DNA of 32,000 nt from positions 1,440,380 to 1,472,379 of the forward strand of contig NC_018664.1 in the NCBI RefSeq assembly GCF_000299355.1, read 5' to 3'. Both the position numbers and the translations under genes were made by a program. Below are positions 1,970 to 21,549 of the stretch, piece by piece (positions within the stretch are counted from its first letter, which is position 1; each line of letters opens with the position of its first letter). Under the pieces are notes generated by a model, which ran no database searches, was not told the DNA's origin, and saw only the letters and a program-made list of their open reading frames with translations. This stretch comes from Gottschalkia acidurici 9a. GTDB lineage: Bacteria; Bacillota; Clostridia; Tissierellales; Gottschalkiaceae.

Positions 1970-2103
1970 ATTATATAAATGTTATACAAAATTACTTTCT
2001 TGGGTAAATTAAATCTATAAAGTAAAAATATCTAAAGGTTTGAACGTGTTTGGAAAAATTGCAAAAATAAAAACGGTAAAAATACAAAAGGGAGTGTGAT
2101 AAG

Positions 2104-3765: not shown

Positions 3766-3768
3766 AAA

Positions 3769-3790
3769 AGTCGTAGTTAAACTACGACTT
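3769..3790 (+). terminator. Intrinsic terminator after rnj
   Basis: AAGTCGTAGT-TA-AACTACGACTT hairpin followed by CTTTATTT. Confidence 0.8.
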
Positions 3791-3839
3791 CTTTATTTGA
3801 TAAAGAGGATATTAAGTGTTACTTAAGGAGTGTGATCGT

Positions 3840-4316: not shown

Positions 4317-4424
4317 CTAAATTTAAATGTTGAAAGTTGTAATTGGTTAAATTAAACCTTGTAAATAAATGATTTAAATTGTATAATTTAAGAAAATGAA
4401 GAAACTTAAGAGGAGAAAACTCAT

Positions 4425-5483: not shown

Positions 5484-5506
5484 ACTCAGATAAGAATAAA
5501 GTACCG

Positions 5507-5554
5507 TCAATAAATAATACGTGGGAAGCTACCACGTATTATTTATTGATTTTT
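5507..5554 (+). terminator. Strong intrinsic terminator after mltG
   Basis: Perfect 18-bp stem TCAATAAATAATACGTGG / CCACGTATTATTTATTGA followed by TTTTT. Confidence 0.9.
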
Positions 5555-5573
5555 AAAATAAGGAGAGATAGGT

Positions 5574-6224
5574 TTGGGTAATATAAATAGAAAATATATA
5601 GAAGACTATATAAGAAGTTTAATACCTAATAAGAAAGATTTTATATCGGAAATAGGACAATATGCGCTTGAGAACAATGTGCCGATAGTTCATCCAGAAG
5701 TTGCTCAACTTCTGAAGGTGTTGGTTAGAATGAATAAACCTAAGAGAATATTAGAAGTAGGGACAGCAATAGGATACTCAGCGTTAGTAATGGCTAAATG
5801 CATGAATGATGGAGAAATAGTTACAATAGAGCGTAACGATGATATGATAAAGATTGCAGAAGATAATATACAGAAAAATGGATTTAAAGATAGAATTAAA
5901 ATTATAAAAGGTGATGCCGAAGATGTTTTAAAGAATATAGATGGTAAGTTTGACTTTATATTTTTAGATGCATCAAAAGGACATTATAAAGATTTCTTTT
6001 TTTACTTTATAGATAAATTGACTGAAGGTGGAGTAGTAGTATCAGACAATATATTGTTTAAAGGAATGGTAGCAACAGATGAACTAGTAATTAGAAGAAA
6101 AAAAACTATAGTTAAAAGAATGAGAGATTACTTAGAATTCATATCTAATAATGAAAGTCTTGAAACAAGTATAATACCAATAGGAGACGGAGTAGCCATT
6201 AGTTATAAGAAGGAGGATGCTTAA
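5574..6224 (+). CDS. trmR: SAM-dependent O-methyltransferase, probable tRNA 5-hydroxyuridine methyltransferase (TrmR-like)
   Basis: VLEVGTAIGYSALVMA, TIERNDDMIKIAEDN, FDFIFLDASKGHY motifs; TTG start with RBS; sits directly before a U32 peptidase as in B. subtilis yrrM-yrrN-yrrO. Confidence 0.82.
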   Translation: MGNINRKYIEDYIRSLIPNKKDFISEIGQYALENNVPIVHPEVAQLLKVLVRMNKPKRILEVGTAIGYSALVMAKCMNDGEIVTIERNDDMIKIAEDNIQKNGFKDRIKIIKGDAEDVLKNIDGKFDFIFLDASKGHYKDFFFYFIDKLTEGGVVVSDNILFKGMVATDELVIRRKKTIVKRMRDYLEFISNNESLETSIIPIGDGVAISYKKEDA

Positions 6225-7452
6225 TGAAAAACCAGAACTTTTAGCACCAGCAGGAGATTTAGAAAAACTAAAATTTGCAATAGCTTATGGAGCAGATGCA
6301 GTATATTTAGGTGGTTCAAAATTTGGACTTAGAGCTTCAGCTAAAAACTTTACAATAGAAGAAATGGAGCAGGGTGTTCTATATGCACATGAAAGAGGAA
6401 AAAAAGTATATGTTACTTTAAATATGATACCTCACAATGAAGATCTAATAGGAATGTCAGAGTATGTTAAAGAATTAGAAAGAATAGGTGTAGATGCAGT
6501 ATTAGTGGCAGATCCTGGTGTACTAGAAATAGTGAAAGAGAGTGCACCTAAATTAGAAATACATTTAAGTACTCAAGCTAACACTACAAACTATGTAGCT
6601 GCAAACTTTTGGTATAAGCAAGGAATAAAAAGGGTAGTAGTTGCTAGAGAGCAGTCATTAGAAGAAATAAAAGAACTTAGAGATAAAGGAAATAAAGAAT
6701 TAGAAATAGAAGCTTTTGTTCATGGAGCTATGTGTATATCTTATTCGGGAAGATGTCTGTTAAGTAACTATATGACTCATAGAGATGCAAATAGAGGAGA
6801 ATGCGCACAGTCATGTAGATGGAGATACTACCTTGTAGAGGAAAAAAGACCTGGCGAATATTTTCCAATAACAGAAGATGAAAAAGGAACATATATATAT
6901 AATTCTAAGGATCTATGTATGTTAAATCACATACCTGAGCTTATAGAAGCTGGAATAGATAGCCTTAAAATAGAAGGAAGAATGAAGAGTCCATACTATG
7001 TAGCTACGGTAATTAGAGCATATAGAATGGTTATAGATGAATATCTTAAGGATCCTCAAAACTATAAGATGGATAATAAGTGGTTAGAAGAAATAAAAAA
7101 AGCTAGCTATAGGGACTTTACAACAGGATTTTACTTTGAAAAGCCAGATCAAAATGAGCAGTTATATGATACTAATTCATATATAAGAGGATATGACTTT
7201 GTGGGATTGGTATTGAACTACGATGAAAAGAACAAGATAGCTACTGTAGAACAAAGAAATAGGATATTTGTAGGAGATGAAATAGAAATATTTGGACCTA
7301 ACAAAGAATATTTTACTCAGAAAATAGAAAAAATGTGGAATGATAAAGAGGAAGAAATCGATGTAGCTCCTCGTGCACAACAAAAGATAAAAATAAAAGT
7401 AGATCATCCAGTTGAAAAAATGGATATATTAAGAAAAGAATTAAATATATAA
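6217..7452 (+). CDS. U32 family peptidase (probable tRNA hydroxylation protein TrhP-like)
   Basis: PELLAPAGDLEKLKFAIAYGADAVYLGG, HGAMCISYSGRCLLSNYMTHRDANRGECAQSCRW, DLCMLNHIPELIEAGIDSLKIEGRMKSPYYVA motifs. Confidence 0.92.
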   Translation: MLNEKPELLAPAGDLEKLKFAIAYGADAVYLGGSKFGLRASAKNFTIEEMEQGVLYAHERGKKVYVTLNMIPHNEDLIGMSEYVKELERIGVDAVLVADPGVLEIVKESAPKLEIHLSTQANTTNYVAANFWYKQGIKRVVVAREQSLEEIKELRDKGNKELEIEAFVHGAMCISYSGRCLLSNYMTHRDANRGECAQSCRWRYYLVEEKRPGEYFPITEDEKGTYIYNSKDLCMLNHIPELIEAGIDSLKIEGRMKSPYYVATVIRAYRMVIDEYLKDPQNYKMDNKWLEEIKKASYRDFTTGFYFEKPDQNEQLYDTNSYIRGYDFVGLVLNYDEKNKIATVEQRNRIFVGDEIEIFGPNKEYFTQKIEKMWNDKEEEIDVAPRAQQKIKIKVDHPVEKMDILRKELNI

Positions 7453-7515
7453 ATAAGAATACCCCTACTGAAAGTTGGAAATAATTTTAATAAAGACTTT
7501 AGTGGGGGTATTCTT

Positions 7516-9192
7516 ATGGGAAAATATGAAAAAGATAATACATATAAAAGAGCTAAAATAATTGCATCGTTTATGGTAAGTATATTTCTATCGTTAATGG
7601 TAAGACTTTATTTTATTCAAATGGTAAAAGGCGAAAAATATCAAGAATTAGCAATGAATCAACAAATATTTAATATTGAGAGTTCTCTATCAAGAGGAAT
7701 AATATTTGATAGGAATGGAAAAAAGTTTACAAATCAAGATGAAGAAAAAGTCTTATATATTTTTAAAAAGAATATAAAAGATAATAAAAAAAATATTGAA
7801 GAATTGAAAAAAGCACTAAAATATAGTAATAAAGAAATTGAGAAATTACTAAATAGTTCTGATTCAGTTATAGAAATTTCTCTAGATAATAAGGATGTTA
7901 ATTTAGATAAATTATCTAACATAAAGGATGTTGTCATAGTTGATAAACAGAAAAGAAATAATGATAAAAACATTTTAGCACATGTTATAGGTTATATTAA
8001 TGAAAAGGACAATATAGGATTAAGTGGAATTGAAAAAGCATTTGATAAAGAGCCATTGAAGGCTAATATAAACCATGGCAAAACTCCTATATTTGTAGAT
8101 GCTAAACAAAGAGTAATTCCTGGTGTAAGTGCAGATATAGGTAGAGGAGAGGTAACTGGAATAGCTAATAGTTTAAAATTAACTATAGATTACGATATAC
8201 AAGAAAAAACAGAAGAGATACTAGATAAAAGTAGAAAAAAAGGGGCTGTAGTTGTATCTGAGGTTGATAGTGGAGATATAATAGCGATGGCAAGTAGACC
8301 TAATGTGGACTTAACAAATATAAAAGAAGAGTTAAATAAACATGATCAAAGATTTTTTAATAAATCATTAGAATTGTCATATCCACCAGGATCTATATTT
8401 AAAGTACCAGTACTATTAGCAGCACTTGAAAAAGATGAAGTATCATTAGAGGATAAAATTTTTTGCAAAGGCTATGAAGAAGTAGAGAATACAATTATTA
8501 ATTGCAATAAAAAGGGAGGACATGGAGAGATTACTGTATTTGAAGGACTTTATAATTCATGCAACTCTACATTTATCCAAATAGGCAAAAAGATAGGAGC
8601 AGAAGAGATAGTGAAAACTGCTAAGGTTTTAGGATTTGGAGAAAAGATAAATATAGGTTTAGAAGATGAAAGTAAAGGAAATCTTCCAAAAGGGAAGGAC
8701 TTAGTAGGTCCCGCAATAGGTAACATATCTATAGGTCAGGGTAATATTGAAGTTACGCCATTACAAGTGACTAATATGATGATGATTGTCGCTAATGGTG
8801 GAGTAAAGAAAGATATGTCTATAGTAGATAGTTATGTTACGGCACAAGGTGCACATGGGAAAAAAATAAGAAGAGAGAGTGATCAAAGAGTTTTATCAGA
8901 GGATTTGGTTAATATGGTAAAAAAGGGATTAGACGAGGTAGTTCAAAGAGGAACAGCTAGTAATATAGAAATGAGAAGTATAGGTGGGGGTGGAGGAAAA
9001 ACAGGTTCGGCTCAGGCTGTACTAAATGGAAAAGAAACCGTACATGCATGGTTTACTGGGTACTTTCCCAAGGATAAGCCCAAATATGTAATAACTGTAT
9101 TCATAGAGAGCGGCGACTCAGGTAGTACACAGGCTGCACCTGTTTTTGAAAAGGTTGCAAAAGAAATATATAAGATTGAGAATAAAAAATAG
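7516..9192 (+). CDS. Penicillin-binding protein, class B (PBP2/SpoVD/FtsI-like) transpeptidase
   Basis: Catalytic YPPGSIFKVP (SxxK), YNSCNSTF (SxN), KTGSAQ; N-terminal TM then SRGIIFDRNGK. Confidence 0.92.
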   Translation: MGKYEKDNTYKRAKIIASFMVSIFLSLMVRLYFIQMVKGEKYQELAMNQQIFNIESSLSRGIIFDRNGKKFTNQDEEKVLYIFKKNIKDNKKNIEELKKALKYSNKEIEKLLNSSDSVIEISLDNKDVNLDKLSNIKDVVIVDKQKRNNDKNILAHVIGYINEKDNIGLSGIEKAFDKEPLKANINHGKTPIFVDAKQRVIPGVSADIGRGEVTGIANSLKLTIDYDIQEKTEEILDKSRKKGAVVVSEVDSGDIIAMASRPNVDLTNIKEELNKHDQRFFNKSLELSYPPGSIFKVPVLLAALEKDEVSLEDKIFCKGYEEVENTIINCNKKGGHGEITVFEGLYNSCNSTFIQIGKKIGAEEIVKTAKVLGFGEKINIGLEDESKGNLPKGKDLVGPAIGNISIGQGNIEVTPLQVTNMMMIVANGGVKKDMSIVDSYVTAQGAHGKKIRRESDQRVLSEDLVNMVKKGLDEVVQRGTASNIEMRSIGGGGGKTGSAQAVLNGKETVHAWFTGYFPKDKPKYVITVFIESGDSGSTQAAPVFEKVAKEIYKIENKK

Positions 9193-9225
9193 AAAATTGT
9201 ACTTGCACAAAAGTTAAGTAAGTCT

Positions 9226-9233: not shown

Positions 9234-9277
9234 CTTATATATAACTTTTTCTCATAATTCTGGAGGTGCAAGACTTA

Positions 9278-9664
9278 ATGATAACTTCATTAATATCAAA
9301 TTTAACTTTTTTAATAGAACCTATTTTGTTACTAGTAGGATATGTTTCTAATAATAATTCTTTTCCGAAACCTTTATCGCAAGAGGAAGAAAGTCATTAT
9401 CTTATTCTATATGAGCAAGGTGATGAGAATGCTAAAAATATATTAATAGAGAGAAATCTTAGACTAGTAGCACATATAGTTAAAAAATATAATAATACAG
9501 GAAGAGAAACAGACGATCTTATTTCAATAGGAACAATAGGGCTTATTAAAGCTATAAATACATTTGACAGGAATAAAAAAGTAAGATTGGCTACATATGC
9601 AGCTAGATGTATTGATAATCCAATCATTACTTTTCGGAACGAATTTGCCATAGCACAAAAATAA
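9278..9664 (+). CDS. sigK: RNA polymerase sigma-K factor, N-terminal half (interrupted by skin-type element)
   Basis: MITSLISNLTFLIEPILLLVGYVSNNNSFPKPLSQEEE...NLRLVAHIVKKY...DLISIGTIGLIKAI...ATYAARCIDN, then 14 foreign residues (PIITFRNEFAIAQK) and a stop. GGAGGT at 9262-9267 favours ATG 9278 over the GTG at 9266. Confidence 0.95.
   Translation: MITSLISNLTFLIEPILLLVGYVSNNNSFPKPLSQEEESHYLILYEQGDENAKNILIERNLRLVAHIVKKYNNTGRETDDLISIGTIGLIKAINTFDRNKKVRLATYAARCIDNPIITFRNEFAIAQK
9609..9619 (+). repeat. attL core direct repeat GTATTGATAAT
   Basis: Identical to 21167..21177; located exactly where homology to SigK stops. Confidence 0.95.
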
Positions 9665-9678
9665 GCCCAGCCTTTCCA

Positions 9679-11319
9679 TTACCTTTTTTCATATTTAGCA
9701 CCAAACATAACTATATCTATATTTTCTCCATCCCATGTAATTCTGTCTACTAAATTTCTAATTAGACTTCTCTTTTCATCATCTTCGGCATCATCAATCG
9801 TATTCTTAAAAATATTTATCATACGGTTCATTATTTCAAAATTTTCTTCTAGAGAGTGCTTGTCATCAATGCTTTCCCTTAAATCTAATAACTTTTCTTT
9901 AAGATTAGCATTTTCACTTTCGAGTTTATTAATTTGATCTAATATGTGCTTAGCTGCAAGACTTCCTTCTCCTTGTGCTAGAGCATTGATTAAGTTAGCT
10001 ATAGACTTGTTGTTAGATTCAATGTTTTTTTTAAGTATATCAATTTCAGACTCTATATTACTTTGAGATGTTTCTACAGCTACTTTATCATCTTTAATTT
10101 TACTATGAAGTCTTGATTCTTGAGAGGATAATCTTTTAAGTTCTTCTATAACTAATTTATCTAATTTATCACCTCGAATATTCTTGATGTTACAGTTCTG
10201 CCCACGACTCTTTTCTTTTAACTCACATAGATAATAGTATGCTATAGATTTATCTTTGTTAACTCTAGTAGCACCTTTTCTCATGAAACTGCCACAGTTT
10301 TCACAAATCAGTATTCCACTTAATAAAGCATTTGTATTTATGTATCTCTTTCTTAATCCTTTGTCTCTATTCATTTCCATTATTTCATTAGCTTTAATCC
10401 ACATATCACTTGAGATAATACCTTCGTGATCCCCAACAGATATTATCCAGTCTGATTGGTCTCTATTTCTATCAGTAGTACCTTTTACTTGTGTAGTCTT
10501 ATTGTAAGCCATGACTCCATGCTCTCCATCAAAATCAGTTTCATCGGCAAATATTGCATGGCCATTGCCTATAAGATAATTGTAAAGCTTTTTATCTGCT
10601 GTAGCATATACTGGATTCTCTAAGATTATTTTTAAAGTATGTACATAGAAGTTAGCACCATTTTTTGATTTTATATTATTTCGTAGACAATAAGTTTCTA
10701 ATCCAGTAAGAGATTTGATCTCAATATACTTATTATATAACAATTTCACTAACTCAACTTCTTCTTGTACAGTTGATAATTTGTATGCTTTTCTTTGTTT
10801 TCCATTTTGATCCAACATTATAATTTCCTTAGAGATAAATCCGGTAGGAGTAATACCTCCTAGCCAGCGCCCAGTCTTAGCTAATTGTTGCAAGTTATCT
10901 CTTATTCTTTCCGCTATAGTTTCTCTCTCTAGTTGAGCAAATACACTAGCAATGTACATCATAGCTCTACCCATAGGGGTAGAGGTGTCAAACTGCTCTC
11001 TTATAGACACAAAAGAAACATTATAGTTTTGTAGCTCTTCTATAAGTACGGCAAAGTCTGCTATATTTCTGCTTATTCTATCTAACCTATAGCATATAAG
11101 TACGTCAAATTTCTTTTGCTTAGCATCCTTTAACATAAGTTGAAATTGAGGTCTATCAGTAGTCCCACCAGAAAAACCTTCATCTTCATATACTGTTATA
11201 TCGTCATTTGAAATATTAAAATGATTATATGCGTACTCTTTACACATTTGTACCTGATTCTCAATAGATTCACCTTTACCGGTAAATTTTGATTTACGTG
11301 AATAGATTACAGCTTTCAT
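9679..11319 (-). CDS. Large serine recombinase (skin excisionase/integrase, SpoIVCA/CisA functional class)
   Basis: MKAVIYSRKSKFTGKGESIENQ (catalytic Ser), YEDEGFSGGTTDRPQFQLML, RLDRISRN, FAQLERETIAERI, zinc-ribbon CENCG...C, C-terminal coiled coil; stop codon 60 bp from attL. Confidence 0.96.
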   Translation of the reverse strand: MKAVIYSRKSKFTGKGESIENQVQMCKEYAYNHFNISNDDITVYEDEGFSGGTTDRPQFQLMLKDAKQKKFDVLICYRLDRISRNIADFAVLIEELQNYNVSFVSIREQFDTSTPMGRAMMYIASVFAQLERETIAERIRDNLQQLAKTGRWLGGITPTGFISKEIIMLDQNGKQRKAYKLSTVQEEVELVKLLYNKYIEIKSLTGLETYCLRNNIKSKNGANFYVHTLKIILENPVYATADKKLYNYLIGNGHAIFADETDFDGEHGVMAYNKTTQVKGTTDRNRDQSDWIISVGDHEGIISSDMWIKANEIMEMNRDKGLRKRYINTNALLSGILICENCGSFMRKGATRVNKDKSIAYYYLCELKEKSRGQNCNIKNIRGDKLDKLVIEELKRLSSQESRLHSKIKDDKVAVETSQSNIESEIDILKKNIESNNKSIANLINALAQGEGSLAAKHILDQINKLESENANLKEKLLDLRESIDDKHSLEENFEIMNRMINIFKNTIDDAEDDEKRSLIRNLVDRITWDGENIDIVMFGAKYEKR

Positions 11320-11426
11320 TTTAAAACCCCTTTATGTTTATTATGTCAATTATATCAAATTTTGAAATAATAAAAAGCTAATAAGTTAATAATAGATTCA
11401 ATATTTATTATATTTATTTAAAAACA

Positions 11427-11463
11427 TAATAAGAGGCCGAATATAAAGTAGTCAGCCTCTTAT
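11427..11463 (-). terminator. Intrinsic terminator downstream of CotF-like gene
   Basis: 10-bp perfect arms AATAAGAGGC / GCCTCTTATT; T-rich continuation on the minus strand. Confidence 0.7.
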
Positions 11464-11478
11464 TGTGTAAAACTATAA

Positions 11479-11772
11479 CTATTTTATTGTATCTTGAGAT
11501 TCACTATAAGCATCTAGTAATTGTTGAGTAGGCGTATTATAAGGTTTTTCCCATCCTTTTTGAACAGATAGTTCTGTTACTGCAGTATGTCCGCCTAATA
11601 CTTGGTTTAAGCTTGCTAAATACATTGCTCTTAATTCTGGAGTAGTGGCAGCCATACTAGAAGTAAGATATGCTGTTGCACCAGCAGAAGCACTAGAAAT
11701 CATGCTGTTAGCTATAACTTCATCACTTATATTTGTAGTATCTTTTACTTTATTAGTAAGAAAAGAAGCCAT
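11479..11772 (-). CDS. CotF-family spore coat protein
   Basis: MASFLTNKVKDTTNISDEVIANSMISSASAGATAYLTSSMAATTPELRAMYLASLNQVLGGHTAVTELSVQKGWEKPYNTPTQQ matches the coat F pattern (DxVIAxDxL...TPELR...H..(x)6KGxYxxY). Start assigned to 11772 because AGGGAGG lies just upstream; the ORF-track start 11811 adds 13 residues. Confidence 0.8.
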   Translation of the reverse strand: MASFLTNKVKDTTNISDEVIANSMISSASAGATAYLTSSMAATTPELRAMYLASLNQVLGGHTAVTELSVQKGWEKPYNTPTQQLLDAYSESQDTIK

Positions 11773-11773
11773 A

Positions 11774-11992
11774 TTATTGTACCTCCCTTGTTGGTGTAAC
11801 TTGATTTTCATTAATAAACTGTTGAATTCCTTTTATTCTTCCCTCTGTTGCTAGAATACCAGCTTCAGCTTGTCTTTTTAAATCTTCATCTGTAATTAGT
11901 GTCTGCATAGCTTTAGAAACTATTAGACCATCTTTCTCCATCTTTAATAAGCCTGTTAGTGATAATAATTCACTTTCCGTAAGTTTTCTCAT
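11774..11992 (-). CDS. Small protein upstream of and coupled to CotF-like gene; probable spore coat-associated protein
   Basis: MRKLTESELLSLTGLLKMEKDGLIVSKAMQTL...; stop lies inside the RBS/start region of the CotF-like gene, implying translational coupling. Confidence 0.6.
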   Translation of the reverse strand: MRKLTESELLSLTGLLKMEKDGLIVSKAMQTLITDEDLKRQAEAGILATEGRIKGIQQFINENQVTPTREVQ

Positions 11993-12270
11993 CTTTTAAC
12001 CTCCAACTTGAAAATTAATTTTGATAACATCAATAGTATGTCAATTTTAGGACATAACATTCCAGGAACTAAATACCAAAAAAAGAATCAATCAAGCAGG
12101 ATTTATATAGATATGAAATAATTGAAACAGAAGAATAACTTTTTATATACAGAAGTTTAAAAAGTCTGTAAGTAACTAGTAAGTTGGAAAGTTAGTGAGT
12201 TTATAGAGATAAAAAAATTATAACTCCTGAAATATTTGAAGAATTAAAAGGATGGAGGGATTAAAGGGAA

Positions 12271-12310
12271 GCACAGTTGGTTCCCAAATTGGATAGTATG
12301 AACCAACTGC
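12271..12310 (-). terminator. Hairpin downstream of KTSC gene, possible terminator
   Basis: CAGTTGGTTC ... GAACCAACTG arms; weak T tract. Confidence 0.5.
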
Positions 12311-12331
12311 AATTTAGAAATAGCAGATTAT

Positions 12332-12535
12332 CTAACTCATTTTTATACAAGGATAAGAGCCTTTTATATTATCACGATGATACTTACCTTTAGAAGAGGC
12401 AGTTAGTAACCCTTCGTATATATGTTGCGGAATTTCACTATAAGCATATGTGCCGCTATGAAATTCAATTAATAAGTTTTTAGATGAAGGATCATAACTA
12501 ATAGTTTTCAAGTTACTTGAAGATACAGGTATCAT
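12332..12535 (-). CDS. KTSC domain-containing protein
   Basis: VSSSNLKTISYDPSSKNLLIEFHSGTYAYSEIPQHIYEGLLTASSKGKYHRDNIKGSYP matches the KTSC domain pattern; upstream GGAGGTG. Confidence 0.85.
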   Translation of the reverse strand: MIPVSSSNLKTISYDPSSKNLLIEFHSGTYAYSEIPQHIYEGLLTASSKGKYHRDNIKGSYPCIKMS

Positions 12536-12793
12536 TTAAATACATTCACCTCCTATAAGCAAATATTATTATATGAAAAGAAGTGGATAATTAAACAAGA
12601 AGATACTGGTTAACATAAAAAGTGAAAATTGACAAGAAGCATTAGAGAGTAATATCAGTAATAATATGGGCTATAATTAGCACTAATAAAATCACTAGAT
12701 GATAAAACAATTAGATTAATGACAAAGTTAAAGTTAATAGGACAAAACATATAAGGCATATATATAAACACTAGCAATAAGGAGTTGAGTGTT

Positions 12794-13000
12794 TTGAATA
12801 TCAGAGTACACTTTCCTACGACGGAGGAAGGAATGGAGGAATTACAAGAGAGGATAGATGAAGCACATGCACATTTAATTATGAATCGTATAAATAACCT
12901 TAACTGGAGTTATGAGGACAAAATTGCTTTAGTTAAGCAAATAAGAGGAGAGCTAAAAAGAAGAGGTGAGCAGAAAGTGTCCTTGGAGGCACCTAGTTAG
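12794..13000 (+). CDS. Small charged protein, candidate recombination directionality factor or phage-type accessory protein
   Basis: MNIRVHFPTTEEGMEELQERIDEAHAHLIMNRINNLNWSYEDKIALVKQIRGELKRRGEQ; AAGGAG 9 nt upstream of the TTG at 12794 (ORF track starts at TTG 12785). Confidence 0.65.
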   Translation: MNIRVHFPTTEEGMEELQERIDEAHAHLIMNRINNLNWSYEDKIALVKQIRGELKRRGEQKVSLEAPS

Positions 13001-13054
13001 TAAAGAAAAGGAGAGTTCATATATAAATTTAAGAATATCTTGCAAAGCGAGTGA

Positions 13055-13080
13055 ATTATTAACTTCATGAAGTTAATAAT
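13055..13080. repeat. 26-bp perfect palindrome ATTATTAACTTCATGAAGTTAATAAT
   Basis: Read directly; each base pairs symmetrically around CATG-centre (TTCATGAA). Confidence 0.9.
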
Positions 13081-13513
13081 AAATGAACTTGGATAGAAAT
13101 TGATATTAACTATATTTATTAAGAAAGATGGTGAATGAGAATGAATTTAAATTACGTAAACACCACGTGAAATATTAGGTTTAAGTAGAAATGACGTAGT
13201 GGGATCACTAGTTGATAGAAAAATAGATATAAATTAAGAGGTCTAACATGCTCTGAAAGAGGAGCAAGGAATCCATCGCCAGATATTATTGTAGAACTTT
13301 TTTAAATATAGAAAGAACCATTTTAAACTTAAAGAGATTTCAGATATAAATGAAGAATAGGACAAGCATATAGTTATGAAATACTAGATAACATAGATTG
13401 AATAATTTAAGGAACATAGTACTGAAGCTACTACAAGAACATAGAGAATTATATGACGTATTAAGTAAATTACTTACCATAATTACTAATATGAAAGCAT
13501 TCCTAAACTAGTA

Positions 13514-13885
13514 ATGATTGATAAGAGACTTAGTATAGAAATTAAGGCTATATATGTCTACATGGCAAGCTATGCAGGAGCAGAAGACACAGCTTTTCCT
13601 GGAGTTGAATTAATGATAGAGCATTTACGTATAAGCGAAAAAAGATTTTATAAATATAGAAAGGAGTTAGTAGATCAAGACTATGTTTCAATAACTAAAA
13701 CTAGGAAAGAGAATAACATCTATACACTAAATCAAATAATAAAATCTCAACACAGTCAATTTGAATGCGTTCAAAGTGTTGCTACTAATAATAGTAGTAT
13801 TAAAAAACAACACAATAAAAAAATAGAAAAAGTCATGTGTGTGTTAGATAAAAAATTGTTTTTGATAAGGCTAGAAAGATACTAA
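13514..13885 (+). pseudogene. Phage/plasmid-type replication or helix-turn-helix protein N-terminal domain, likely truncated
   Basis: LSIEIKAIYVYMASYAGAEDTAFPGVELMIEHLRISEKRFYKYRKELVDQDYVSITKT resembles the N-terminal wHTH of phage replication proteins; the C-terminus runs into unrelated sequence and surrounding DNA is full of frame-disrupted coding remnants. Confidence 0.6.
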
Positions 13886-14125
13886 AAGTATCTAATGAAG
13901 ACATTGACATTGTAAAAGAGAAATATGAAATTACTAAGATATCTGGGTATAAAATCTAATGATATTCAAGATAAAAGCAATATAAGAGAATAGGTAGATG
14001 CCTATTTCACAGTTTTAAGCAAAGGATAAGTAAATATAGTCTAGAATAATTGGAAAAGACGATACTTGAAAGAAGACAGGAAAGTAATTTAAAAGACTTA
14101 GACTATGTTAGAATAATTCCTTAGT

Positions 14126-14155
14126 AAAAAAAGTAAGTGGACAAACTCCACTTAC
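14126..14155 (-). terminator. Intrinsic terminator of the DUF1259 gene
   Basis: GTAAGTGG / CCACTTAC hairpin followed on the minus strand by TTTTTTT. Confidence 0.85.
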
Positions 14156-14203
14156 CCCAAGTTTAAAAATAAAATAAGGTGCGATTGTTAATATTAGTTT
14201 AAT

Positions 14204-14695
14204 TTAATATATCATATAGTCATCATCATTATAGTCATAAGACCTATCATAATCTTTATGGTTATCACTATGCTTACGACGATCACAATCTTCCAAGATT
14301 TCAAAAGCTCTAGCTACTTTATTTGCAAAATCTATAGGATCATCTATAGAAAAAAAGTGAATATAAAATAATCTTGGCTTGTCAAATAGCCAGTGATTAT
14401 GAAGAGCTGTAACTTCAATGCCTTCTCTACGAAGTTCACTAATAAATGGATTAATTTCTTCTTGCAATATAACAGTTTCTCCTAAGTTTAGAGTTTTACC
14501 TTTACAATCCATTGATTCAAATGAAAAAAGAGCGTTAAGAACAAGTGGACTTTCAGTTCGTATTCCTTCAATGGTTGCTTTAATATTTCTCATACGCGTT
14601 ACTGCACATAGACCATCAGTGGATGTTAAAATCTCACTTTCAAGAATACGTGCGAATCTTCTACACAAGTTAGATGAACTATTATTTGAACTCAT
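14204..14695 (-). CDS. DUF1259 (LpqO-like) domain protein
   Basis: GLCAVTRMRNIKATIEGI, GKTLNLGETVILQEEINPFISELRREGIEVTALHNHWLFDKPRLFYIHFFSIDDPIDFANKVARAFE is the DUF1259 signature (GE..LLEDEVNPVM..L...GIEVTALHNH). Confidence 0.85.
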   Translation of the reverse strand: MSSNNSSSNLCRRFARILESEILTSTDGLCAVTRMRNIKATIEGIRTESPLVLNALFSFESMDCKGKTLNLGETVILQEEINPFISELRREGIEVTALHNHWLFDKPRLFYIHFFSIDDPIDFANKVARAFEILEDCDRRKHSDNHKDYDRSYDYNDDDYMIY

Positions 14696-14975
14696 TATTA
14701 TTTCTCCCCCTCAATAATATAGTATGTCCAAGGCTTAAAATTGTTACTAAAAATTATAAGGAGGTGAATATTTTAATAGATTATATGAGTTATTAGAGGT
14801 GTACTTTAATAGCTAGTGGTGTCTTGTAAAAGCTAAGTATCATAATAAGTGTCCGTGATATAGGATTAGATATTTTATTCTTGGTTCAATCATGGTCTCA
14901 TAAGAGAAAAATAATGGCAGTGCTAGATCATATACTCTCAGATCAGATTCACTTCAGTCTTATTCATCATTTAGA

Positions 14976-15455
14976 TCACCAGTAGCATGCAATATTTGGA
15001 CTTTCTAAATATAAACATTTGTATAGTACCTGAGGTAGAATTCTCATAGATATATATTTACTTCTGTCTTTTTTTATATCTTTGTTTTCATAAGCAGCAA
15101 TAAAATTCCATCCACGATCGTTAACTGCTGTTATACGTACAGTTCCTTGTATCATATAAGCCCACTCTGATTGCTGATGCCAATGAACCTCACGTATGCC
15201 ACCAGGTGTCAATCGCTTCCATTGTGGTTGCTACTGGAAGTTCCCTAGCAGTAATCTCACGAGACTGTCCACTTCGTCTTAATACCATAGTAGTATCAGA
15301 AAAAGAAAATTTCAAGTTGGGAATCACACCAGTATCTGTAGCATGTGAGACAAGCATGTTATGATTTCGAAGATCCCGAAGGATATTACGTGGGTCTGCA
15401 TCGGTTGCACCATCTCCATTTTTTATAGGATGTGGTATATATCCAGTAAGTTAGT
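14976..15455 (-). pseudogene. oxdC: Oxalate decarboxylase-like bicupin, decayed (frameshifted N-terminal cupin only)
   Basis: Minus strand: [65 protein letters not shown] (frame 1) then [39 protein letters not shown] (frame 2), both diagnostic of OxdC/YoaN; C-terminal cupin missing. Confidence 0.88.
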
Positions 15456-15555
15456 TACTATTACTCTAATATCTTATTAAGTAAGGATAATATGATTAAC
15501 ACAAATAGCTTGGATAGCATGGATCAATATAAACTAATGAGATGCTCACAGTTAC

Positions 15556-15760
15556 TTTACATTTAGAGAGTACTGTGCAGAATAAATTTAAGGCTCATTA
15601 ACGGACATATTATTTAAGTTGCAATTTAATAAATAGAAATGTTTTTGAAAATTAAATAATACGGTGTTCAAAGGTTGATGAAATTTATGTCGAACCATAA
15701 AATATATGTTACATATGGTATAGTATTAGTATACGTTAAGTTGTAGTAATTAGATATTGT
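15556..15760 (+). repeat. Diverged dispersed repeat copy A
   Basis: Shares TTTACATTTAGA(G/A)AGTACT and GAAAAT..AATAAT..GGTGTT.AAA.GTT and (T)AGATATT(G/A)TGT blocks, in the same order, with 16672..16880. Confidence 0.65.
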
Positions 15761-15792
15761 GTCATAGTTCATTTACAAAGGAGAAGGACATA

Positions 15793-16044
15793 ATGAAAAA
15801 AGATATAAATATAAAAAAATTATATTTATTCACATTTCTATCTTTCATTTTAATCTTATTATTTCTTTATTTATTTTCACAGAAAGCTCCATACTTTTAT
15901 ACGGGATTCGATTACCATACAATACCAAATAGATTAAGCAAACTTGCAAACTTCACATTTATAATTTTAATTCTGATTAACTTTATATGTGTATTATTAT
16001 CTATTTTTTATTCAATAAAGATAATATTTAATAAAATTAAGTAA
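15793..16044 (+). CDS. Small two-TM membrane protein, unknown function
   Basis: MKKDINIKKLYLFTFLSFILILLFLYLFSQK...FTFIILILINFICVLLSIFYSIKIIF; GGAGAAGG RBS before ATG 15793. Confidence 0.6.
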   Translation: MKKDINIKKLYLFTFLSFILILLFLYLFSQKAPYFYTGFDYHTIPNRLSKLANFTFIILILINFICVLLSIFYSIKIIFNKIK

Positions 16045-16151
16045 CAGTCTGACTTAGTTTGTTCTACACTAACTGAGTCACAAAATTATTGTTTTATAAC
16101 ATAACTGTTAAAGAATATGCAATAATACGATAGATAATAAGAGGTGAATTT

Positions 16152-16349
16152 ATGGATAAAAGAGATAAACAAGGTAAACACATGATAGGGAAATGTAAAA
16201 AAAATTCTATGATTAATTTGTCAGAGTCAATAAATCGTTCAACAATAGGTGATTTAGGTGAGTTAACAAGATTGGGATGGATCTCCAATATTATCATTAT
16301 AGTTATTATTATTGGAATATTATTTTTTCTCTCCAAATGCTCTAATTAA
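16152..16349 (+). CDS. Small single-TM protein, unknown function
   Basis: MDKRDKQGKHMIGKCKKNSMINLSESINRSTIGDLGELTRLGWISNIIIIVIIIGILFFLSKCSN; GAGGTG RBS. Confidence 0.55.
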   Translation: MDKRDKQGKHMIGKCKKNSMINLSESINRSTIGDLGELTRLGWISNIIIIVIIIGILFFLSKCSN

Positions 16350-16440
16350 GTTAAATCATAATCATATTAGAGTATTATGATGTAAAAACATATCAGTAAA
16401 CACGCTTGATCTATAATATTTATAACTTGAGGGTTACTTA

Positions 16441-16500
16441 TATTATTCAAAGTTGAATTTTACGGTATTATTATATTTAAATTCAAGTAAAAAGATAAGT
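16441..16500 (+). repeat. Diverged dispersed repeat fragment
   Basis: TATTATTCAAAGTTGAATTTTACGGTATTATTAT matches TATTATTCAAAACTGAATTTTACGATGTTCTTAT at ~18748. Confidence 0.55.
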
Positions 16501-16547
16501 TTAAAGTCAGCAAGATTAGAAAGGAGCTTATGAAATAGAGGTGACAT

Positions 16548-16649
16548 ATGGAAGATAAGAAAGAAAAACTAAAAGAACAAATGAAGGAATATATAGATAA
16601 TTTACTTAGATTAGCAGAAGATGAAGGACGCTGGACTATTTTGAAATAG
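16548..16649 (+). CDS. Putative 33-aa peptide
   Basis: MEDKKEKLKEQMKEYIDNLLRLAEDEGRWTILK; upstream GAGGTGAC RBS-like sequence. Not in the ORF track because of length. Confidence 0.4.
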   Translation: MEDKKEKLKEQMKEYIDNLLRLAEDEGRWTILK

Positions 16650-16671
16650 AAGTAAAAAACAATAAAGGTCA

Positions 16672-16880
16672 TTTACATTTAGAAAGTACTATACAGAATA
16701 GGTCTAGAGTTTATTAATAGATAAACTGTTTAAATTACAGCTAAACTCATATAAAAGTTCTTCGAAAATCGAATAATGTGGTGTTTAAAAGTTAACGTGC
16801 TTTTACCTAGCTATAAGATATGTGGAAAATATGGTATAATTTTGATAGTAATTAATTCATAATCGTTAGATATTATGTAC
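16672..16880 (+). repeat. Diverged dispersed repeat copy B
   Basis: See 15556..15760. Confidence 0.65.
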
Positions 16881-16917
16881 AAGCAGTAAGTAAGTCTATA
16901 GGAGGAATTAGTCATTG

Positions 16918-17247
16918 TATAAGGAAAAAACGAAAATCATCAAACTCATTTTAGAAAAAGATTTAGAGTCTTTATATGTGGGAGTATGATCTCAGCTACC
17001 CTTTTAGGGGTATATGGTCAGGATATTGCTTATTATATAAGTGACCATATAGAAAAATTATCTCCTGTGTATTGTAAGCAATAACACTGATAAGTATAGT
17101 ATTGTTTTTAACTACATCCATATTAATATATATACCCATAAAAAACAAAAACTGAAAAGATTTATTCCATATTTGATTATTAATAGTCTTATAGGTATGT
17201 TGATTTCTATGCTTTCATTATTAGTTATGATTATGTGGTGGGGATAA
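16918..17247 (+). pseudogene. Frame-disrupted small membrane protein remnant
   Basis: Hydrophobic fragments in different frames: GSMISATLLGVYGQDIAYYISDHIEKLSPVYCKQ*, FLTTSILIYIPIKNK and LKRFIPYLIINSLIGMLISMLSLLVMIMWWG*. Confidence 0.4.
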
Positions 17248-17316
17248 TGGTAATTACTTTATAATTTTTAGATATAATAAAAATGGGCAAACATTCATGA
17301 AACTGTAAAAGAAGAA

Positions 17317-17523
17317 ATGAATCAAACTATTTTTGTGAAAGATGGCAAGGTAATATGTCATCTACATGGGAATCCTGAAAATACTGGAATAGGGTTCAAC
17401 TTTGGTACATATCTGCTAAATTCAAAAGAAGGCAGATACATTAGTTTTATGTCAAAATCAAAGTTATCATTTAAAATTACGGTCTCAGAGAATGGTATAA
17501 GATATTTTGAATATGTTAAATAA
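17317..17523 (+). CDS. Small protein of unknown function
   Basis: MNQTIFVKDGKVICHLHGNPENTGIGFNFGTYLLNSKEGRYISFMSKSKLSFKITVSENGIRYFEYVK; compositionally protein-like, no recognised family. Confidence 0.4.
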   Translation: MNQTIFVKDGKVICHLHGNPENTGIGFNFGTYLLNSKEGRYISFMSKSKLSFKITVSENGIRYFEYVK

Positions 17524-18280
17524 ATTAATATTCTTCGCAATATTATTTTACGACACAATAGTTAGATAATGCTATATCTGTAATTATGATAGCAGGATAT
17601 GAAAAAAGTTATCTTACTTTTTCGTGATTATTTTTTGAATTGGTGTAAAATCACTTGTTATCTTTCTTTTACCAATACCGAATTCAAAAAGAAATGTATT
17701 TACAACTGACATAAAGATGGTGATAAATCTACCAGATGAAGCAGATTGTGAAGCGATTGTAAGAACTTATACAGCAAAATAATTTAATAAATTTAATATC
17801 CATCAACTCACTAAAATTAAAGATAAAGTAGGAGGAAACATAGAGGGTGATATTCTAGCACTATACTTAAAAGACGGAAAAGGGATTTTGAATTTTTTCT
17901 TTAAAAAAATAAAACTAATGTAAGTTTTGATGATGTTTCGGATGTTAAAATAACTGCTTTTTCTACAATGGGATTGGCCACAGTAGATGAACAGGAAAAG
18001 AGAGTAATCAACGGACAACTTAAATAAGATGAGAAAGGAATGTATTCTTATGAGATCCAACGTTACTATACTCAGTATGAAAAATGGTTTATGGAGTCCA
18101 TTCTTATAGAAGTAAAGTATCAAATTGATGGAAATGGATATGTATCAGTATTTGCAGTAACTACAACAAATGCAGAAGATGGTTCCAATTTCTTTGAAAA
18201 CGAAACATTAAATAATCCTATTGAACCTGAAGAATAAAATCAGTAAAGTTACAGATATTTAATTTTAAAGGTCAGTATCT

Positions 18281-18730
18281 ATGTTGAGACTTTTTCTATT
18301 CAAAATAAATAGGAGGTGTAGAGAATTGAGTAAGCATAAGGCAGATTTGGATTTAAGATCAAGTATGATTTTAGCTCTTATACTATTAGCTTTATCACTA
18401 ATTGTAAGTCAGATTTCTGATGAAAAGATTAAAATGAATATAATAATTATTTTATTTAGCATTATGACTATTGCACTACTATATAGAAGTTATAAAGACT
18501 TTAAAGATAAGACTTACTCTACTACTATATTTATAGCATTAACTAACATAGCAATAATCATTTTAGGTATATTATATATGTTTGTATTTTTAAGATACTA
18601 TCAAGTTACAGACATTAACCTTATAATAAAGATGAGAAAAACTGAACGTATACTTAGTGTATTTATATTTGCTATGATATTTTTAAAAAACTTTTTAAGA
18701 AGCGAAAGATTTGTAAATAGAGATAAATAG
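18281..18730 (+). CDS. Membrane protein of unknown function (several TM helices)
   Basis: ...LRSSMILALILLALSLIVSQISDE...IIIILFSIMTIALLYRSYKDFKD...TIFIALTNIAIIILGILYMFVFLRYY...; likely true start at TTG ~18326 after AGGAGG. Confidence 0.6.
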   Translation: MLRLFLFKINRRCRELSKHKADLDLRSSMILALILLALSLIVSQISDEKIKMNIIIILFSIMTIALLYRSYKDFKDKTYSTTIFIALTNIAIIILGILYMFVFLRYYQVTDINLIIKMRKTERILSVFIFAMIFLKNFLRSERFVNRDK

Positions 18731-18731
18731 T

Positions 18732-18880
18732 ATTTAAAACACCGTATTATTCAAAACTGAATTTTACGATGTTCTTATGTTAAAATTCAAATGAAAATTA
18801 ATGAAAACATAGGTATGAAGTTAAAAAATTGATAAGAAGGATATACAGAATAGATTTAAGGCTCATTAATAAATTAATTA
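18732..18880 (+). repeat. Diverged dispersed repeat copy C with partly inverted block
   Basis: ACAGAATAGATTTAAGGCTCATTAA matches 15576..15600 (GCAGAATAAATTTAAGGCTCATTAA); AACACCGTATTATT (18739..18752) is the exact reverse complement of AATAATACGGTGTT (15655..15668). Confidence 0.65.
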
Positions 18881-18905
18881 ATTTTAAAAATTTTAATAAA
18901 TAAGA

Positions 18906-18945
18906 GGCAAATTCCCTTATCTAAATAAGCATAAGGTAATTTGCC
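18906..18945 (-). terminator. Terminator of YmaF-like gene
   Basis: GGCAAATTCCCTTAT / ATAAGGTAATTTGCC (14 of 15 pairs) just downstream of the minus-strand stop at 18960. Confidence 0.7.
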
Positions 18946-18959
18946 GTTATATTACAATA

Positions 18960-19505
18960 TTAAGATATAGGATCCTGAATTAGTGTTGCAAATACAATTT
19001 GATGGAAGTGTCCATCATCAAAAGTTGTTCTAGCCTTAACAAAATGAATGTGTTTTCCGTTACCTACATCAATAGCTGGACCAGTTTCAGTACCAAGTTC
19101 ATGATGGTGGTTTACGAAGAAATCAGTATTAGTTAGTAGAGCATGTTTATGGCCACCACCAGGTAGAGGAATTGCCTCACTAGTAACTCCTGCAACACGG
19201 TGATTATGACGATCGTCACACTCTTCCGCTAATTTAGTGCTACCTAAGAATTCATGCACGTGAGATTGAGTTCCTTCTTCATTTTCATCACAATGGTCAT
19301 GACGCTTACGTCCATAATACTCATTTTCTCTATAGTCATCATATTCATTATAATAACGATCTTTATCACAATCGTGTTTATGTTTCTTTTTATCATCTTT
19401 ATTACAATCATGTTCATGCTTCTTTCTATTATCCTTATCACAGTGGTTATGACAAGGGGGATTTATTCTCTTTATGCTTTGAATAATATGACAAAATAGA
19501 CACAT
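18960..19505 (-). CDS. YmaF family protein with His/Asp/Lys-rich N-terminal extension
   Basis: HVHEFLGSTKLAEECDDRHNHRVAGVTSEAIPLPGGGHKHALLTNTDFFVNHHHELGTETGPAIDVGNGKHIHFVKARTTFDDGHFHQIVFATLI is the YmaF signature. Confidence 0.88.
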   Translation of the reverse strand: MCLFCHIIQSIKRINPPCHNHCDKDNRKKHEHDCNKDDKKKHKHDCDKDRYYNEYDDYRENEYYGRKRHDHCDENEEGTQSHVHEFLGSTKLAEECDDRHNHRVAGVTSEAIPLPGGGHKHALLTNTDFFVNHHHELGTETGPAIDVGNGKHIHFVKARTTFDDGHFHQIVFATLIQDPIS

Positions 19506-19967
19506 CCTTATTATTAATTTATTGGCGAGTATACAATTTTTGTTATATACAAGCTATATTACATTATATGCACCTATCCTTAATGAGTGACTTGAAAAAA
19601 GTGTTTTACTTAAACATTTAGGAAGTTAAAATTAAAAGAAAAGTTAATTCAAACTTAGAAGAAATGATGTGAAAAAAGTATATAATTAAATAAGTCCTAC
19701 CGAATATACCGACAGACACTTTAGACAAAACTACTAAGATTAAAGTGTATTTTTTTATTGTGGGTAGGTTCAACATGAATTACCTTTTGAGGATTAAAAT
19801 AGTTATAGGTTAGGCTATAGAGCTAATTTATAGTTTTTACCTAAATATTATACTATAATCTTCAAATATAGTACTTTGTAAAGTGTTCCTAGAGTCTGGT
19901 AAATATATGATAAAATAAGTGTAATTAATTATATTTACACAAACACAATATCATATGTGTTAAGGAT

Positions 19968-20321
19968 GTGAAGAGAATAGAATTAAGAAAAATAATCTCA
20001 AAAAGTCTACAGGGAGTACTAGGTGTAATAAGTTCAATTCTATTTACAATAAGTTTTCCTTATTTCGGATGGAACTTTGTAATAAATGTTACAAAAGCAT
20101 TTGAAAATATAGGTTTTAGTATTGATCTAGTTGGACGTCCAGGAACTTATGATCCTGGAGCAGTTATTGTATCAGGATTATATTTATTGACAATATTGTT
20201 AGCTTCTTATCTTACTATTAAAAAGACAAAGTATAAACTCTATGGTAAAATAATTTTGTTCAGTGGAATACTCATGACTATCATGGTTTTTGTATTAGTT
20301 AGTTCTATGATATGGTTCTGA
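19968..20321 (+). CDS. Multi-TM membrane protein, unknown function
   Basis: ISKSLQGVLGVISSILFTISFPYFGWNFVINVTKAF...VIVSGLYLLTILLASYLTI...IILFSGILMTIMVFVLVSSMIWF. Confidence 0.6.
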   Translation: MKRIELRKIISKSLQGVLGVISSILFTISFPYFGWNFVINVTKAFENIGFSIDLVGRPGTYDPGAVIVSGLYLLTILLASYLTIKKTKYKLYGKIILFSGILMTIMVFVLVSSMIWF

Positions 20322-20649
20322 TTATACATAATGATAAACTACAGTATGAGTTTTGAATGTTTAACATTAGAGTAAATGAAGATAGTTAATTTAGTGAACT
20401 AAAGGCTGGATCATATCAAGCTATAGAGGTATATTTTTCATGCCTAATATTTACTTAAGCTATATCATATATTTAACCATGTGAAACTTAATTAGAATAG
20501 AAGATGACTATATAATTGAGTTTTAATTATACTTTCTGTTTCAGTGATTTTTATTATTTTTTGACTGTTATTTTGGAAAAAAGTAAGAGTAGATCTTATA
20601 CACAATTATCATTAAAATAACAAAAGATTACGAGATATATGGAAATGCT

Positions 20650-20769
20650 ATGGGAAAGGCGACTTTATCTATAAGAATATTAATTCTGGTTATGGTAATG
20701 ATTTTTCTACTTGATAATTCTGAATTAATTTCAGTAAGGTTTTTATATGTATTCTATTTATTAATATGA
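20650..20769 (+). CDS. Putative 39-aa TM peptide
   Basis: MGKATLSIRILILVMVMIFLLDNSELISVRFLYVFYLLI; weak RBS. Confidence 0.25.
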   Translation: MGKATLSIRILILVMVMIFLLDNSELISVRFLYVFYLLI

Positions 20770-20850
20770 TATAGAAAAAATATAACGGTAGCATGATCTA
20801 GTTTAATCACAAAAATTATTAAATTGATAAGTAACAATACAAACTGTATT

Positions 20851-20894
20851 AATAGACTAGACTATTGAATGACTCTATATCTAGTCTATTTTTT
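20851..20894 (+). terminator. Strong intrinsic terminator
   Basis: AATAGACTAGA / TCTAGTCTATT 11-bp perfect stem followed by TTTT. Confidence 0.8.
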
Positions 20895-21007
20895 ATATAG
20901 AAAACAACAAAATATGTACAATTAAAAGAATTAATATAAAAATCACCTTTTAACTTTAATTTTAAGACTACTAAAAACAACTATAATATTATAAAAAATT
21001 AAGGAGC

Positions 21008-21145
21008 CTAATTGAAATGCATCTCAATTAATTTACTAAAATCTTCTTTAGTTAGATTTAATGATCTTCTCGTGCTTTTTATTATTCTTCCACCTACAGT
21101 ACTAAGGTTATATAAAGACTTTAAGTTATCAACAGTCTTGCTGAA
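21008..21145 (-). pseudogene. Coding remnant, HTH-like, no start codon
   Basis: Minus strand frame YFSKTVDNLKSLYNLSTVGGRIIKSTRRSLNLTKEDFSKLIEMHFN*; preceded by a stop, no ATG/GTG/TTG start found. Confidence 0.3.
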
Positions 21146-21166
21146 ATAAAACGTTCCAGATCACAA

Positions 21167-21177
21167 GTATTGATAAT
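21167..21177 (+). repeat. attR core direct repeat GTATTGATAAT
   Basis: Identical to 9609..9619; SigK homology resumes here. Confidence 0.95.
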
Positions 21178-21549
21178 GAAATACTTATGACGATACGATC
21201 GTGTAAAAAAACACAATCAGAGGTTTCACTACAAGACCCTATAGGAGTAGACCGTGAGGGTAATGAATTATCACTTATGGATGTACTGGGAACAGACCCA
21301 GATGAAATAACAGATAAGGTTCATCTCAAAATCGAAATAAAAAAGCTTTATGATAAGATAAGCAAGGTTTTAAAAGCGAGAGAAAAAACCATAATACAAC
21401 TTAGATATGGTCTTTTAAATGGTGAACGTAAGACTCAGAGAGAAATAGCTGATATGCTTGGAATTTCAAGGTCATATGTATCCAGAATTGAAAAAAGAGC
21501 TGTACAAAAATTATCAAAAGAATTTAATTATGAAATTAAAGGAAGGTAA
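21178..21549 (+). CDS. sigK: RNA polymerase sigma-K factor, C-terminal half
   Basis: EILMTIRSCKKTQSEVSLQDPIGVDREGNELSLMDVLG...REKTIIQLRYGLLNGERKTQREIADMLGISRSYVSRIEKRAVQKLSKEF (region 4.2 HTH). Confidence 0.96.
   Translation, partial: EILMTIRSCKKTQSEVSLQDPIGVDREGNELSLMDVLGTDPDEITDKVHLKIEIKKLYDKISKVLKAREKTIIQLRYGLLNGERKTQREIADMLGISRSYVSRIEKRAVQKLSKEFNYEIKGR

Follow-up and report, generated by a model that had tools for sequence, protein, structure and literature searches.

The 32,000-nucleotide stretch of Gottschalkia acidurici 9a analysed here (contig NC_018664.1, positions 1,440,380 to 1,472,379; hereafter the window, whose own numbering is used throughout) carries a split copy of sigK. Two sigK segments, Curi_c13480 and Curi_c13620, are separated by an insert of about 11.5 kb (9620-21177), and the gene for a large serine recombinase, Curi_c13490, lies at one edge of this insert. 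As long as the insert is in place, the open reading frame (ORF) of the 5′ segment continues into it up to 9664. Joining 9266-9619 to 21178-21549 gave a 726-nt frame that encodes an in-frame SigK of 241 amino acids (aa) with the conserved YAARCIDNEILM. The annotated start of sigK is probably the ATG at 9278, and the N-terminal extension looks, in our reading of the translation, like the B. subtilis pro-sequence. The in-frame rejoining, the exact 11-bp repeat that bounds the insert and the recombinase domains encoded at its edge indicate that 9620-21177 is the sigK-intervening (skin) element of G. acidurici 9a, formerly Clostridium acidurici. The features of the locus are listed in Table 1.

Table 1. 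Features of the split sigK locus, its predicted recombination sites and the genes carried by the element (window positions, unless another locus is named)
Feature	Position	Strand	Remarks
sigK 5′ segment	9266-9619	+	Curi_c13480; codons 1-118, ends ...YAARCIDN
sigK 3′ segment	21178-21549	+	Curi_c13620; codons 119-241 plus stop, starts E-I-L-M-T-I-R (EILMTIRS...)
Core GTATTGATAAT, attL copy	9609-9619		identical to 21167-21177
Core GTATTGATAAT, attR copy	21167-21177		identical to 9609-9619
Predicted crossover dinucleotide AA, attL copy	9617-9618		identity-run intersection, dyad centre, AA in 55/55 junctions
Predicted crossover dinucleotide AA, attR copy	21175-21176		identity-run intersection, dyad centre, AA in 55/55 junctions
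attP left (P) half-site	21150-21175		outer arm CGTTCC at 21152-21157, positions 24-19 from the centre
attP right (P′) half-site	9618-9643		inner motif ATCCAAT; outer arm GGAACG at 9636-9641, positions 19-24 from the centre
attB left (B) half-site	9598-9617		about 20 bp, predicted extent; reverse complement of the B-left consensus, TtTCaATACATCT, shares T2, C4, A6 and T7 with the attP motif
attB right (B′) half-site	21176-21195		about 20 bp, predicted extent; consensus ATGAaAT.cT.ATG shares T2, G3, A6 and T7 with the attP motif
Large serine recombinase	9679-11319	-	Curi_c13490; 546 aa; PF00239, PF07508, PF13408; coiled coil
67-aa protein	12332-12535	-	KTSC-like by eye
Conserved small protein	12785-13000	+	Curi_c13520; about 68-71 aa; homologues in 11/12 complete elements
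Small-protein homologues	L007 9677-9937; L008 9766-9969; L047, L068 9792-10004; L003 3830-4060 (-); L041 9629-9859 (-)
HTH_36 protein	13514-13885	+
DUF1259 protein	14204-14695	-
YmaF-family protein	18960-19505	-

The domain search of Curi_c13490 returned Resolvase (PF00239, E 1e-41), Recombinase (PF07508) and Zn_ribbon_recom (PF13408), and the protein matched the solved serine integrases TP901-1, a Bxb1-type enzyme and SprA/YokA; the SprA match (E 1e-8) covered the N-terminal part only. The N-terminus reads IYSRKSK, and S10 aligns with the catalytic serine, the position mutated in CD1231 S10A. A coiled coil of about 115 residues (roughly 400-513) was delimited against a relative that has none. 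Curi_c13490 is the sole recombinase at the element edge, with its stop codon at 9679, 60 bp from the attL core. The translation was 100% identical to the G. acidurici genome protein, and the next best relative in the database shared 61% identity. Upstream of the start codon, CATAATAAA-like -10 sequences that recall mother-cell sigma promoters were seen, by eye only.

The direct repeat at the two ends of the element is identical over exactly 11 bp, and the bases adjoining it differ on both sides. Joining the element ends into a circle gave the attP junction CGTTCC-N9-GTATTGATAAT-N16-GGAACG, 48 bp long, whose midpoint lies between core bases 9 and 10, on an AA dinucleotide. The rejoined chromosomal site, attB, reads GTATT-GATAATGA-AATAC and has its midpoint at the same AA step. 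The initial annotation had located the two hexamers and derived their shared midpoint at AA, and its coordinates and arithmetic check out. It had also taken the two centres for independent symmetries that strongly support a crossover there. Both symmetries do centre on AA, but attP and attB draw positions 1-9 of the left half from one and the same piece of DNA, which makes the two symmetries only partly independent. Chance levels were estimated from pseudo-junctions made of random pairs of places within the same window. Among the pseudo-attP controls, ∼10% had 6 or more consecutive mirrored bases centred on one or another of the 10 core steps; 5 or more consecutive mirrored bases within 12 bp of a single step fixed beforehand were seen in ∼1.2% of controls. 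The two levels multiply to ∼1e-3. When mirrored positions 2-26 were counted in the window attP, 13 of 25 matched about the AA step (chance mean 7.3, P of 13 or more ∼0.015).

Related elements were then compared at the same step. Twenty-six recombinase homologues were aligned, and the alignment was used to fetch 80 genomic loci (L001-L080) whose proteins were 40-58% identical. The sigK fragments at these loci were located by tblastn with the rejoined SigK. Further examples came from exact-protein look-ups (L081-L083) and from viral contigs. At 43 of the 80 loci the recombinase gene adjoins a sigK fragment broken at the same codon as in the window, between C-I-(E/D)-N and E-I/L-L-M. In B. subtilis SigK the residues at the skin site would be C-I-E-N followed by E-I-L, with the break between E-N and E-I. 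Ten loci with both junctions, together with the window, made up a set of 11 complete elements (1.6-11.5 kb); L081, which is also complete, was examined separately.

The runs of identity between attL and attR in these elements were numbered from the codon 118/119 boundary, -1 being the last base of codon 118. While the run spans 11 bp in the window, it is AATG (-3 to +1) in L003, AAT (-3 to -1) in L041, AAA (-4 to -2) in L007 and L026, and AAATG in four other elements. These runs overlap only at -3 and -2, and the AA named by the initial annotation therefore lies in every one of them. At -1, attL and attR of L026 and L007 carry different bases, so that the conserved Asn codon is restored only if the crossover falls to the left of -1. 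AA was present at the predicted step in all 55 junctions. Moreover, the attP mirror count peaked solely at the AA step in each of the 11 complete elements (12-22 of 25 positions, background about 7), and its sum over these elements was 178; 16 other step centres gave 44-83, and base-centred axes gave 64-89. Unintegrated attP sites were sought in IMG/VR viral contigs with homologous recombinases and none was found; the contigs were mostly proviruses, five of them with sigK flanks.

Read outward from the AA step, 55 attP half-sites gave the consensus xTGCtAT..c...C.....GG, composed of xTGCtAT at positions 1-7, C at 13 and GG at 19-20. The most constant bases were C4 (54 of 55), A6 (53), T7 (51) and G20 (49), and conservation reached about position 25-27 on each side. 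GG stands at 19-20 on both arms of the window attP, which places the window in the register of the family. The initial annotation had proposed to look for conserved CGTTCC/GGAACG arms in homologous elements. The position of these arms (19-24) and a GGAA core are indeed conserved, but the exact hexamer is particular to the window: its nearest relatives carry GGAAAC where the window has GGAACG. The outer motif varies by clade, being GGAAACA in the nearest relatives, GGCTCT in a Ruminococcus/Oscillospiraceae-like clade, a T-run in a third clade and GGAACG on both arms in the window. Over positions 8-26 the two arms matched better within an element (11.4) than between elements (8.6), a value reached in 2 of 20,000 permutations. 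Such covarying, clade-specific arms are expected if one protein domain reads both of them. A half-site profile built from the relatives only gave the right arm of the window a score of 9.7 (rank 6 of ∼64,000 window positions), and this arm was the best match in the attP region, in the AA register only; since the profile mixes GC-rich clades and scores unrelated places in the window highly, we use it as supporting evidence. Taken together, the identity-run intersection, the 11 dyads and the invariant AA uphold the crossover that had been proposed at 9617-9618 / 21175-21176. The decisive support comes from the relatives and not from the two symmetries in the window. We consider it very probable that this is a skin element with a large serine recombinase, and that its four half-sites are arranged about this AA as the crossover.

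Several observations weigh against this placement, and most of them concern the register of the window itself. The 11-bp identity leaves 10 candidate dinucleotides, and the crossover of the window could fall on another of them, for example at a dyad 2 bp further right. The window mirror count is in fact tied, reaching 13/25 also at the centre two steps to the right of AA, so that the window by itself is suggestive and not decisive; with this tie, and with a mirrored hexamer at one of the core steps in ∼10% of controls, what had been called strong support is better described as modest. The inner arms TTGAT and CCAAT depart from the family sequences ATAGC and GCTAT, and the left arm scored poorly on the profile of the relatives (-4.6). 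The right-hand bound of the intersection is set by L007 and L026, both metagenome-assembled genomes, and a mutation after integration or an assembly error at -1 in them would make that bound wider. The attB mirror count across relatives had no peak at the AA step (sum 78, against 86 and 85 at two other centres). In the literature on SpoIVCA or on the clade of the window, no mapping of the crossover dinucleotide was found, and a paper on an Alicyclobacillus sigK prophage gives nothing on att sites. As the nearest relative is only 61% identical, a register shifted in the window element alone is formally conceivable. On the other hand, the contiguous outer hexamers of the window and the family GG at 19-20 are equidistant from AA on both arms, the right arm fits the profile of the relatives in no other register, mirror counts revealed no dyad at +2 in the attP site of any relative, and AA is kept at that step in every related junction. 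A crossover at another core dinucleotide is therefore unlikely.

The hexamer symmetry could also be coincidental, and the element a decaying remnant that no longer recombines and whose att sites have no current function. A mirrored hexamer does arise at one of the 10 steps in about a tenth of the controls, and no phage structural genes remain in the element. Against this, the 546-aa recombinase ORF is intact with all its domains, the same variant hexamer occurs on both arms at the distance conserved in the family, and the junctions still give a perfect sigK frame. In addition, G. acidurici is described as an endospore former, which requires an intact sigK. We regard a remnant as quite unlikely. 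A longer overlap across much of the 11-bp core, in the style of a tyrosine integrase, can practically be set aside: core repeats of 10-14 bp are often quoted for clostridial phages, but no recombinase other than a serine recombinase lies at the element edge, and relatives recombine with just 3 bp of identity (AAA or AAT), which is incompatible with an overlap region of 6-8 bp.

For attB, the inverted repeat GTATT...AATAC that had been pointed out is present with AA as its midpoint, but as a dyad it lacks statistical significance, and relatives do not conserve it. As the mirror count does not peak at AA, we dropped the attB dyad as independent statistical evidence. The same centre is supported by another argument: each half of attB, which lies in conserved coding sequence, matches the inner motif of attP, and does so in the same register. 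From the AA step outward, the left half of attB reads TtTCaAT and the right half ATGAaAT, against xTGCtAT in attP, with T2, A6 and T7 conserved. A recombinase domain that reads similar inner sequences in all four half-sites would fit this pattern. The outer attP motif, shifted inward by about 5 bp as in the Listeria integrase model, was also sought in attB by eye, with no convincing match.

With AA retained as the crossover, a mechanism can be proposed from the observed att anatomy, the in-frame sigK, the dyad centre common to the family and the 2-bp intersection. The recombinase would recognise two attP-type half-sites of about 25 bp, each with an inner motif at 2-7 and an outer GGAACG at 19-24, and two attB-type half-sites within the sigK codons for ...A-R-C-I-D-N and E-I-L-M on either side of the break. 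Recombinase dimers would bind attL and attR. Excision (attL x attR) would begin with 2-nt staggered cuts of both strands at AA, the half-sites would be exchanged through subunit rotation, and religation would restore sigK and free an 11.5-kb circle with a quasi-palindromic attP of about 50 bp. AA/TT is not palindromic and is the only strong polarity signal; we propose it as the sole determinant of the polarity of joining. In model serine integrases polarity is set by the non-palindromic central dinucleotide alone, and the outer portion of each half-site is read by the zinc-ribbon domain. Three parts of this scheme are inferred by analogy with SprA, CD1231/CD1234 and SpoIVCA/Skr: the cleavage chemistry, the mother-cell timing and the dependence on a directionality factor.

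The orientation of the insertions differs among the loci. At 8 loci, and in the clade of the window, the recombinase gene is the antisense neighbour of the 5′ sigK fragment; at 35 loci it adjoins the 3′ fragment in the sense orientation. The dinucleotide is AA in the sense of sigK throughout both classes. Insertions in opposite orientations at a fixed AA mean that one class has TT and the other AA when the dinucleotide is read relative to the recombinase gene. The recombinase tree of L001-L080 would imply at least two reversals of insertion orientation. Opposite orientations at one site support a polarity set by the AA/TT asymmetry.

The element has been catalogued before. In a 2022 survey, Galperin et al. 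count G. acidurici 9a (Curi_c13480, Curi_c13490, Curi_c13620; 11.5 kb, 13 ORFs) as one of 15 species whose sigK is split, and describe the orientation of skin elements as variable. Since element ends are stated there as unadjusted for terminal repeats, the survey holds no att analysis; the analysis of the att sites and of the crossover is what is added here. The original genome paper mentions sigK only as Curi_c13480. The genes in window 1-9200 follow the order found in L081-L083 (RNase J, QueT, YceG, methyltransferase, peptidase U32, uridine kinase, penicillin-binding protein, sigK). This gene order, kept between G. acidurici and its relatives, indicates that the chromosomal context of the target is stable. 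A second insertion hot-spot of sigK, at codons R-E-G-N-E-L (about 21255-21275), is vacant in the window and reads GGTAATGAATTA. It is of the C. difficile/C. tetani type, and the PhiS63 core there is GTAATGAAAT. AATGAA is common to the occupied site and the second hot-spot, so the right half-sites of two distinct sigK targets are similar.

Among known systems, the B. subtilis skin element with SpoIVCA is similar in that excision restores a split sigK, the recombinase gene occupies the end of the element beside the 5′ fragment and runs antisense to it, and a short direct repeat is flanked by imperfect inverted repeats. The B. subtilis site is described as AATGA, a 5-bp repeat with imperfect inverted repeats of about 21 bp. 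By fragment length, reported as 129 and 138 aa, B. subtilis SigK is compatible with a break at codon 113/114 but not at codon 142. AATGA would thus lie in the same sigK codons as the window insertion and start with the same AA. The two systems differ in element size (48 kb in B. subtilis, 11.5 kb in the window), in the phage-like genes that are absent from the window element, in recombinase length (500 aa for SpoIVCA, 546 aa here) and in the core (5 bp against 11 bp). Skr is the directionality factor of SpoIVCA; in the window, a search for a skr-like ORF across the 5′ end of the recombinase gene found none.

The skinCd element of C. difficile is likewise a sigK-intervening element excised by a large serine recombinase, CD1231. 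CD1231 alone carries out integration, and excision also requires CD1234, a small factor encoded by the element; the skinCd att sites have a 12-bp common motif flanked by inverted repeats. It differs from the window element in its position in sigK (fragments of 130 and 89 aa) and in its recombinase of 505 aa. Its site has been grouped with those of PhiS63 and the C. tetani skin at about codon 142 (G-N-E-I), downstream of the site used in the window. The C. difficile sigK has no pro-sequence, whereas the SigK of the window appears to keep a pro-like N-terminal extension. SPbeta, which interrupts spsM in B. subtilis and encodes SprA and SprB, is another element of a sporulation gene with a large serine recombinase. 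In the SprA attP, a symmetry reaching about 25 bp to either side surrounds a central AA, and the SprA attB has no obvious symmetry. In vitro mapping placed the cleavage at this AA, and efficient recombination requires AA or TT. SPbeta differs from the window element in its target gene, its distant recombinase, its 16-bp conserved core and in being an active prophage. With the phage integrases Bxb1, phiC31, TP901-1 and Listeria A118/LI the window recombinase shares its domain architecture, and the model attP and attB sites of these enzymes are about 50 bp and 40 bp. Unlike theirs, the attB of the window lies inside an essential sporulation gene, and this one attB is used in both orientations by different clades. 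Excision of the window element is presumably developmental and not lytic. The domain set, an attP inverted repeat of about 50 bp and a non-palindromic dinucleotide common to attB and attP were all found here. The design of attB and attP is therefore typical of large serine recombinases, and the system is an unremarkable example of a well-known type.

The protein encoded at 12785-13000 is conserved among the related elements. Its family is 56-86 aa long with the motif ..vHYP..E....L..R..., and in L007, L008, L047 and L068 the small gene lies just upstream of the recombinase start or overlaps it. No Pfam or PHROG family was found for the protein and NCBIfam gave nothing usable; the 34 relatives found are all annotated as hypothetical. 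It is a plausible candidate for the recombination directionality factor. Two further elements, L047 (9716-11354) and L068 (9694-11366), are 1.6 kb long and consist only of the small gene and a 447-aa recombinase without the coiled coil of about 115 aa. The final codons of this recombinase are supplied by the attP arm at attR. Both may be excision-only, domesticated versions. The element of Brassicibacter mesophilus (L081, 9574-11668) is 2.1 kb long and encodes a full-length recombinase of 545 aa, 61% identical to that of the window. A homologue of the small protein was sought in this 2.1-kb element and not found. The left outer arm of L081 is degenerate, with GACAAA against GGAAAC in its relatives.

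Domain and family searches of the window element found no phage structural genes (capsid, tail, terminase), so that it is not recognisable as a prophage. A two-gene unit on the reverse strand (11479-11992) consists of a 72-aa ORF followed by a CotF-domain, spore-coat-like protein, and ends in a hairpin and T-run just upstream of the promoter region of the recombinase. The other small ORFs of the element that were tested gave no usable family in Pfam, PHROGs or NCBIfam.

The family-level picture and the side observations are more interesting than the window element itself. For an uncharacterised recombinase, attB, attP and the crossover now have a precise definition that can be tested. Beyond this we put forward, tentatively and as a reading we hold to be rather doubtful, that the codon-118 recombinases form a natural specificity series around one attB and one AA, with at least three covarying arm motifs, at least two independent reversals of orientation that an AA or TT reading relative to the recombinase gene would simply explain, a small protein as directionality factor, minimal switches, and an integration-competent element in G. 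acidurici. If so, the 1.6-kb elements without the coiled coil would be domesticated, excision-only developmental switches that are no longer mobile, and the G. acidurici element would be a full-length member of the series that can still integrate. Dozens of recombinases that share one attB and crossover but vary in outer arms and orientation provide a ready-made data set for DNA reading by the zinc ribbon, and the same set is useful for choosing orthogonal serine integrases in genome engineering. The small protein and the minimal elements without the coiled coil bear on the control of excision directionality, and the minimal elements also on how a mobile element may become a fixed developmental switch.

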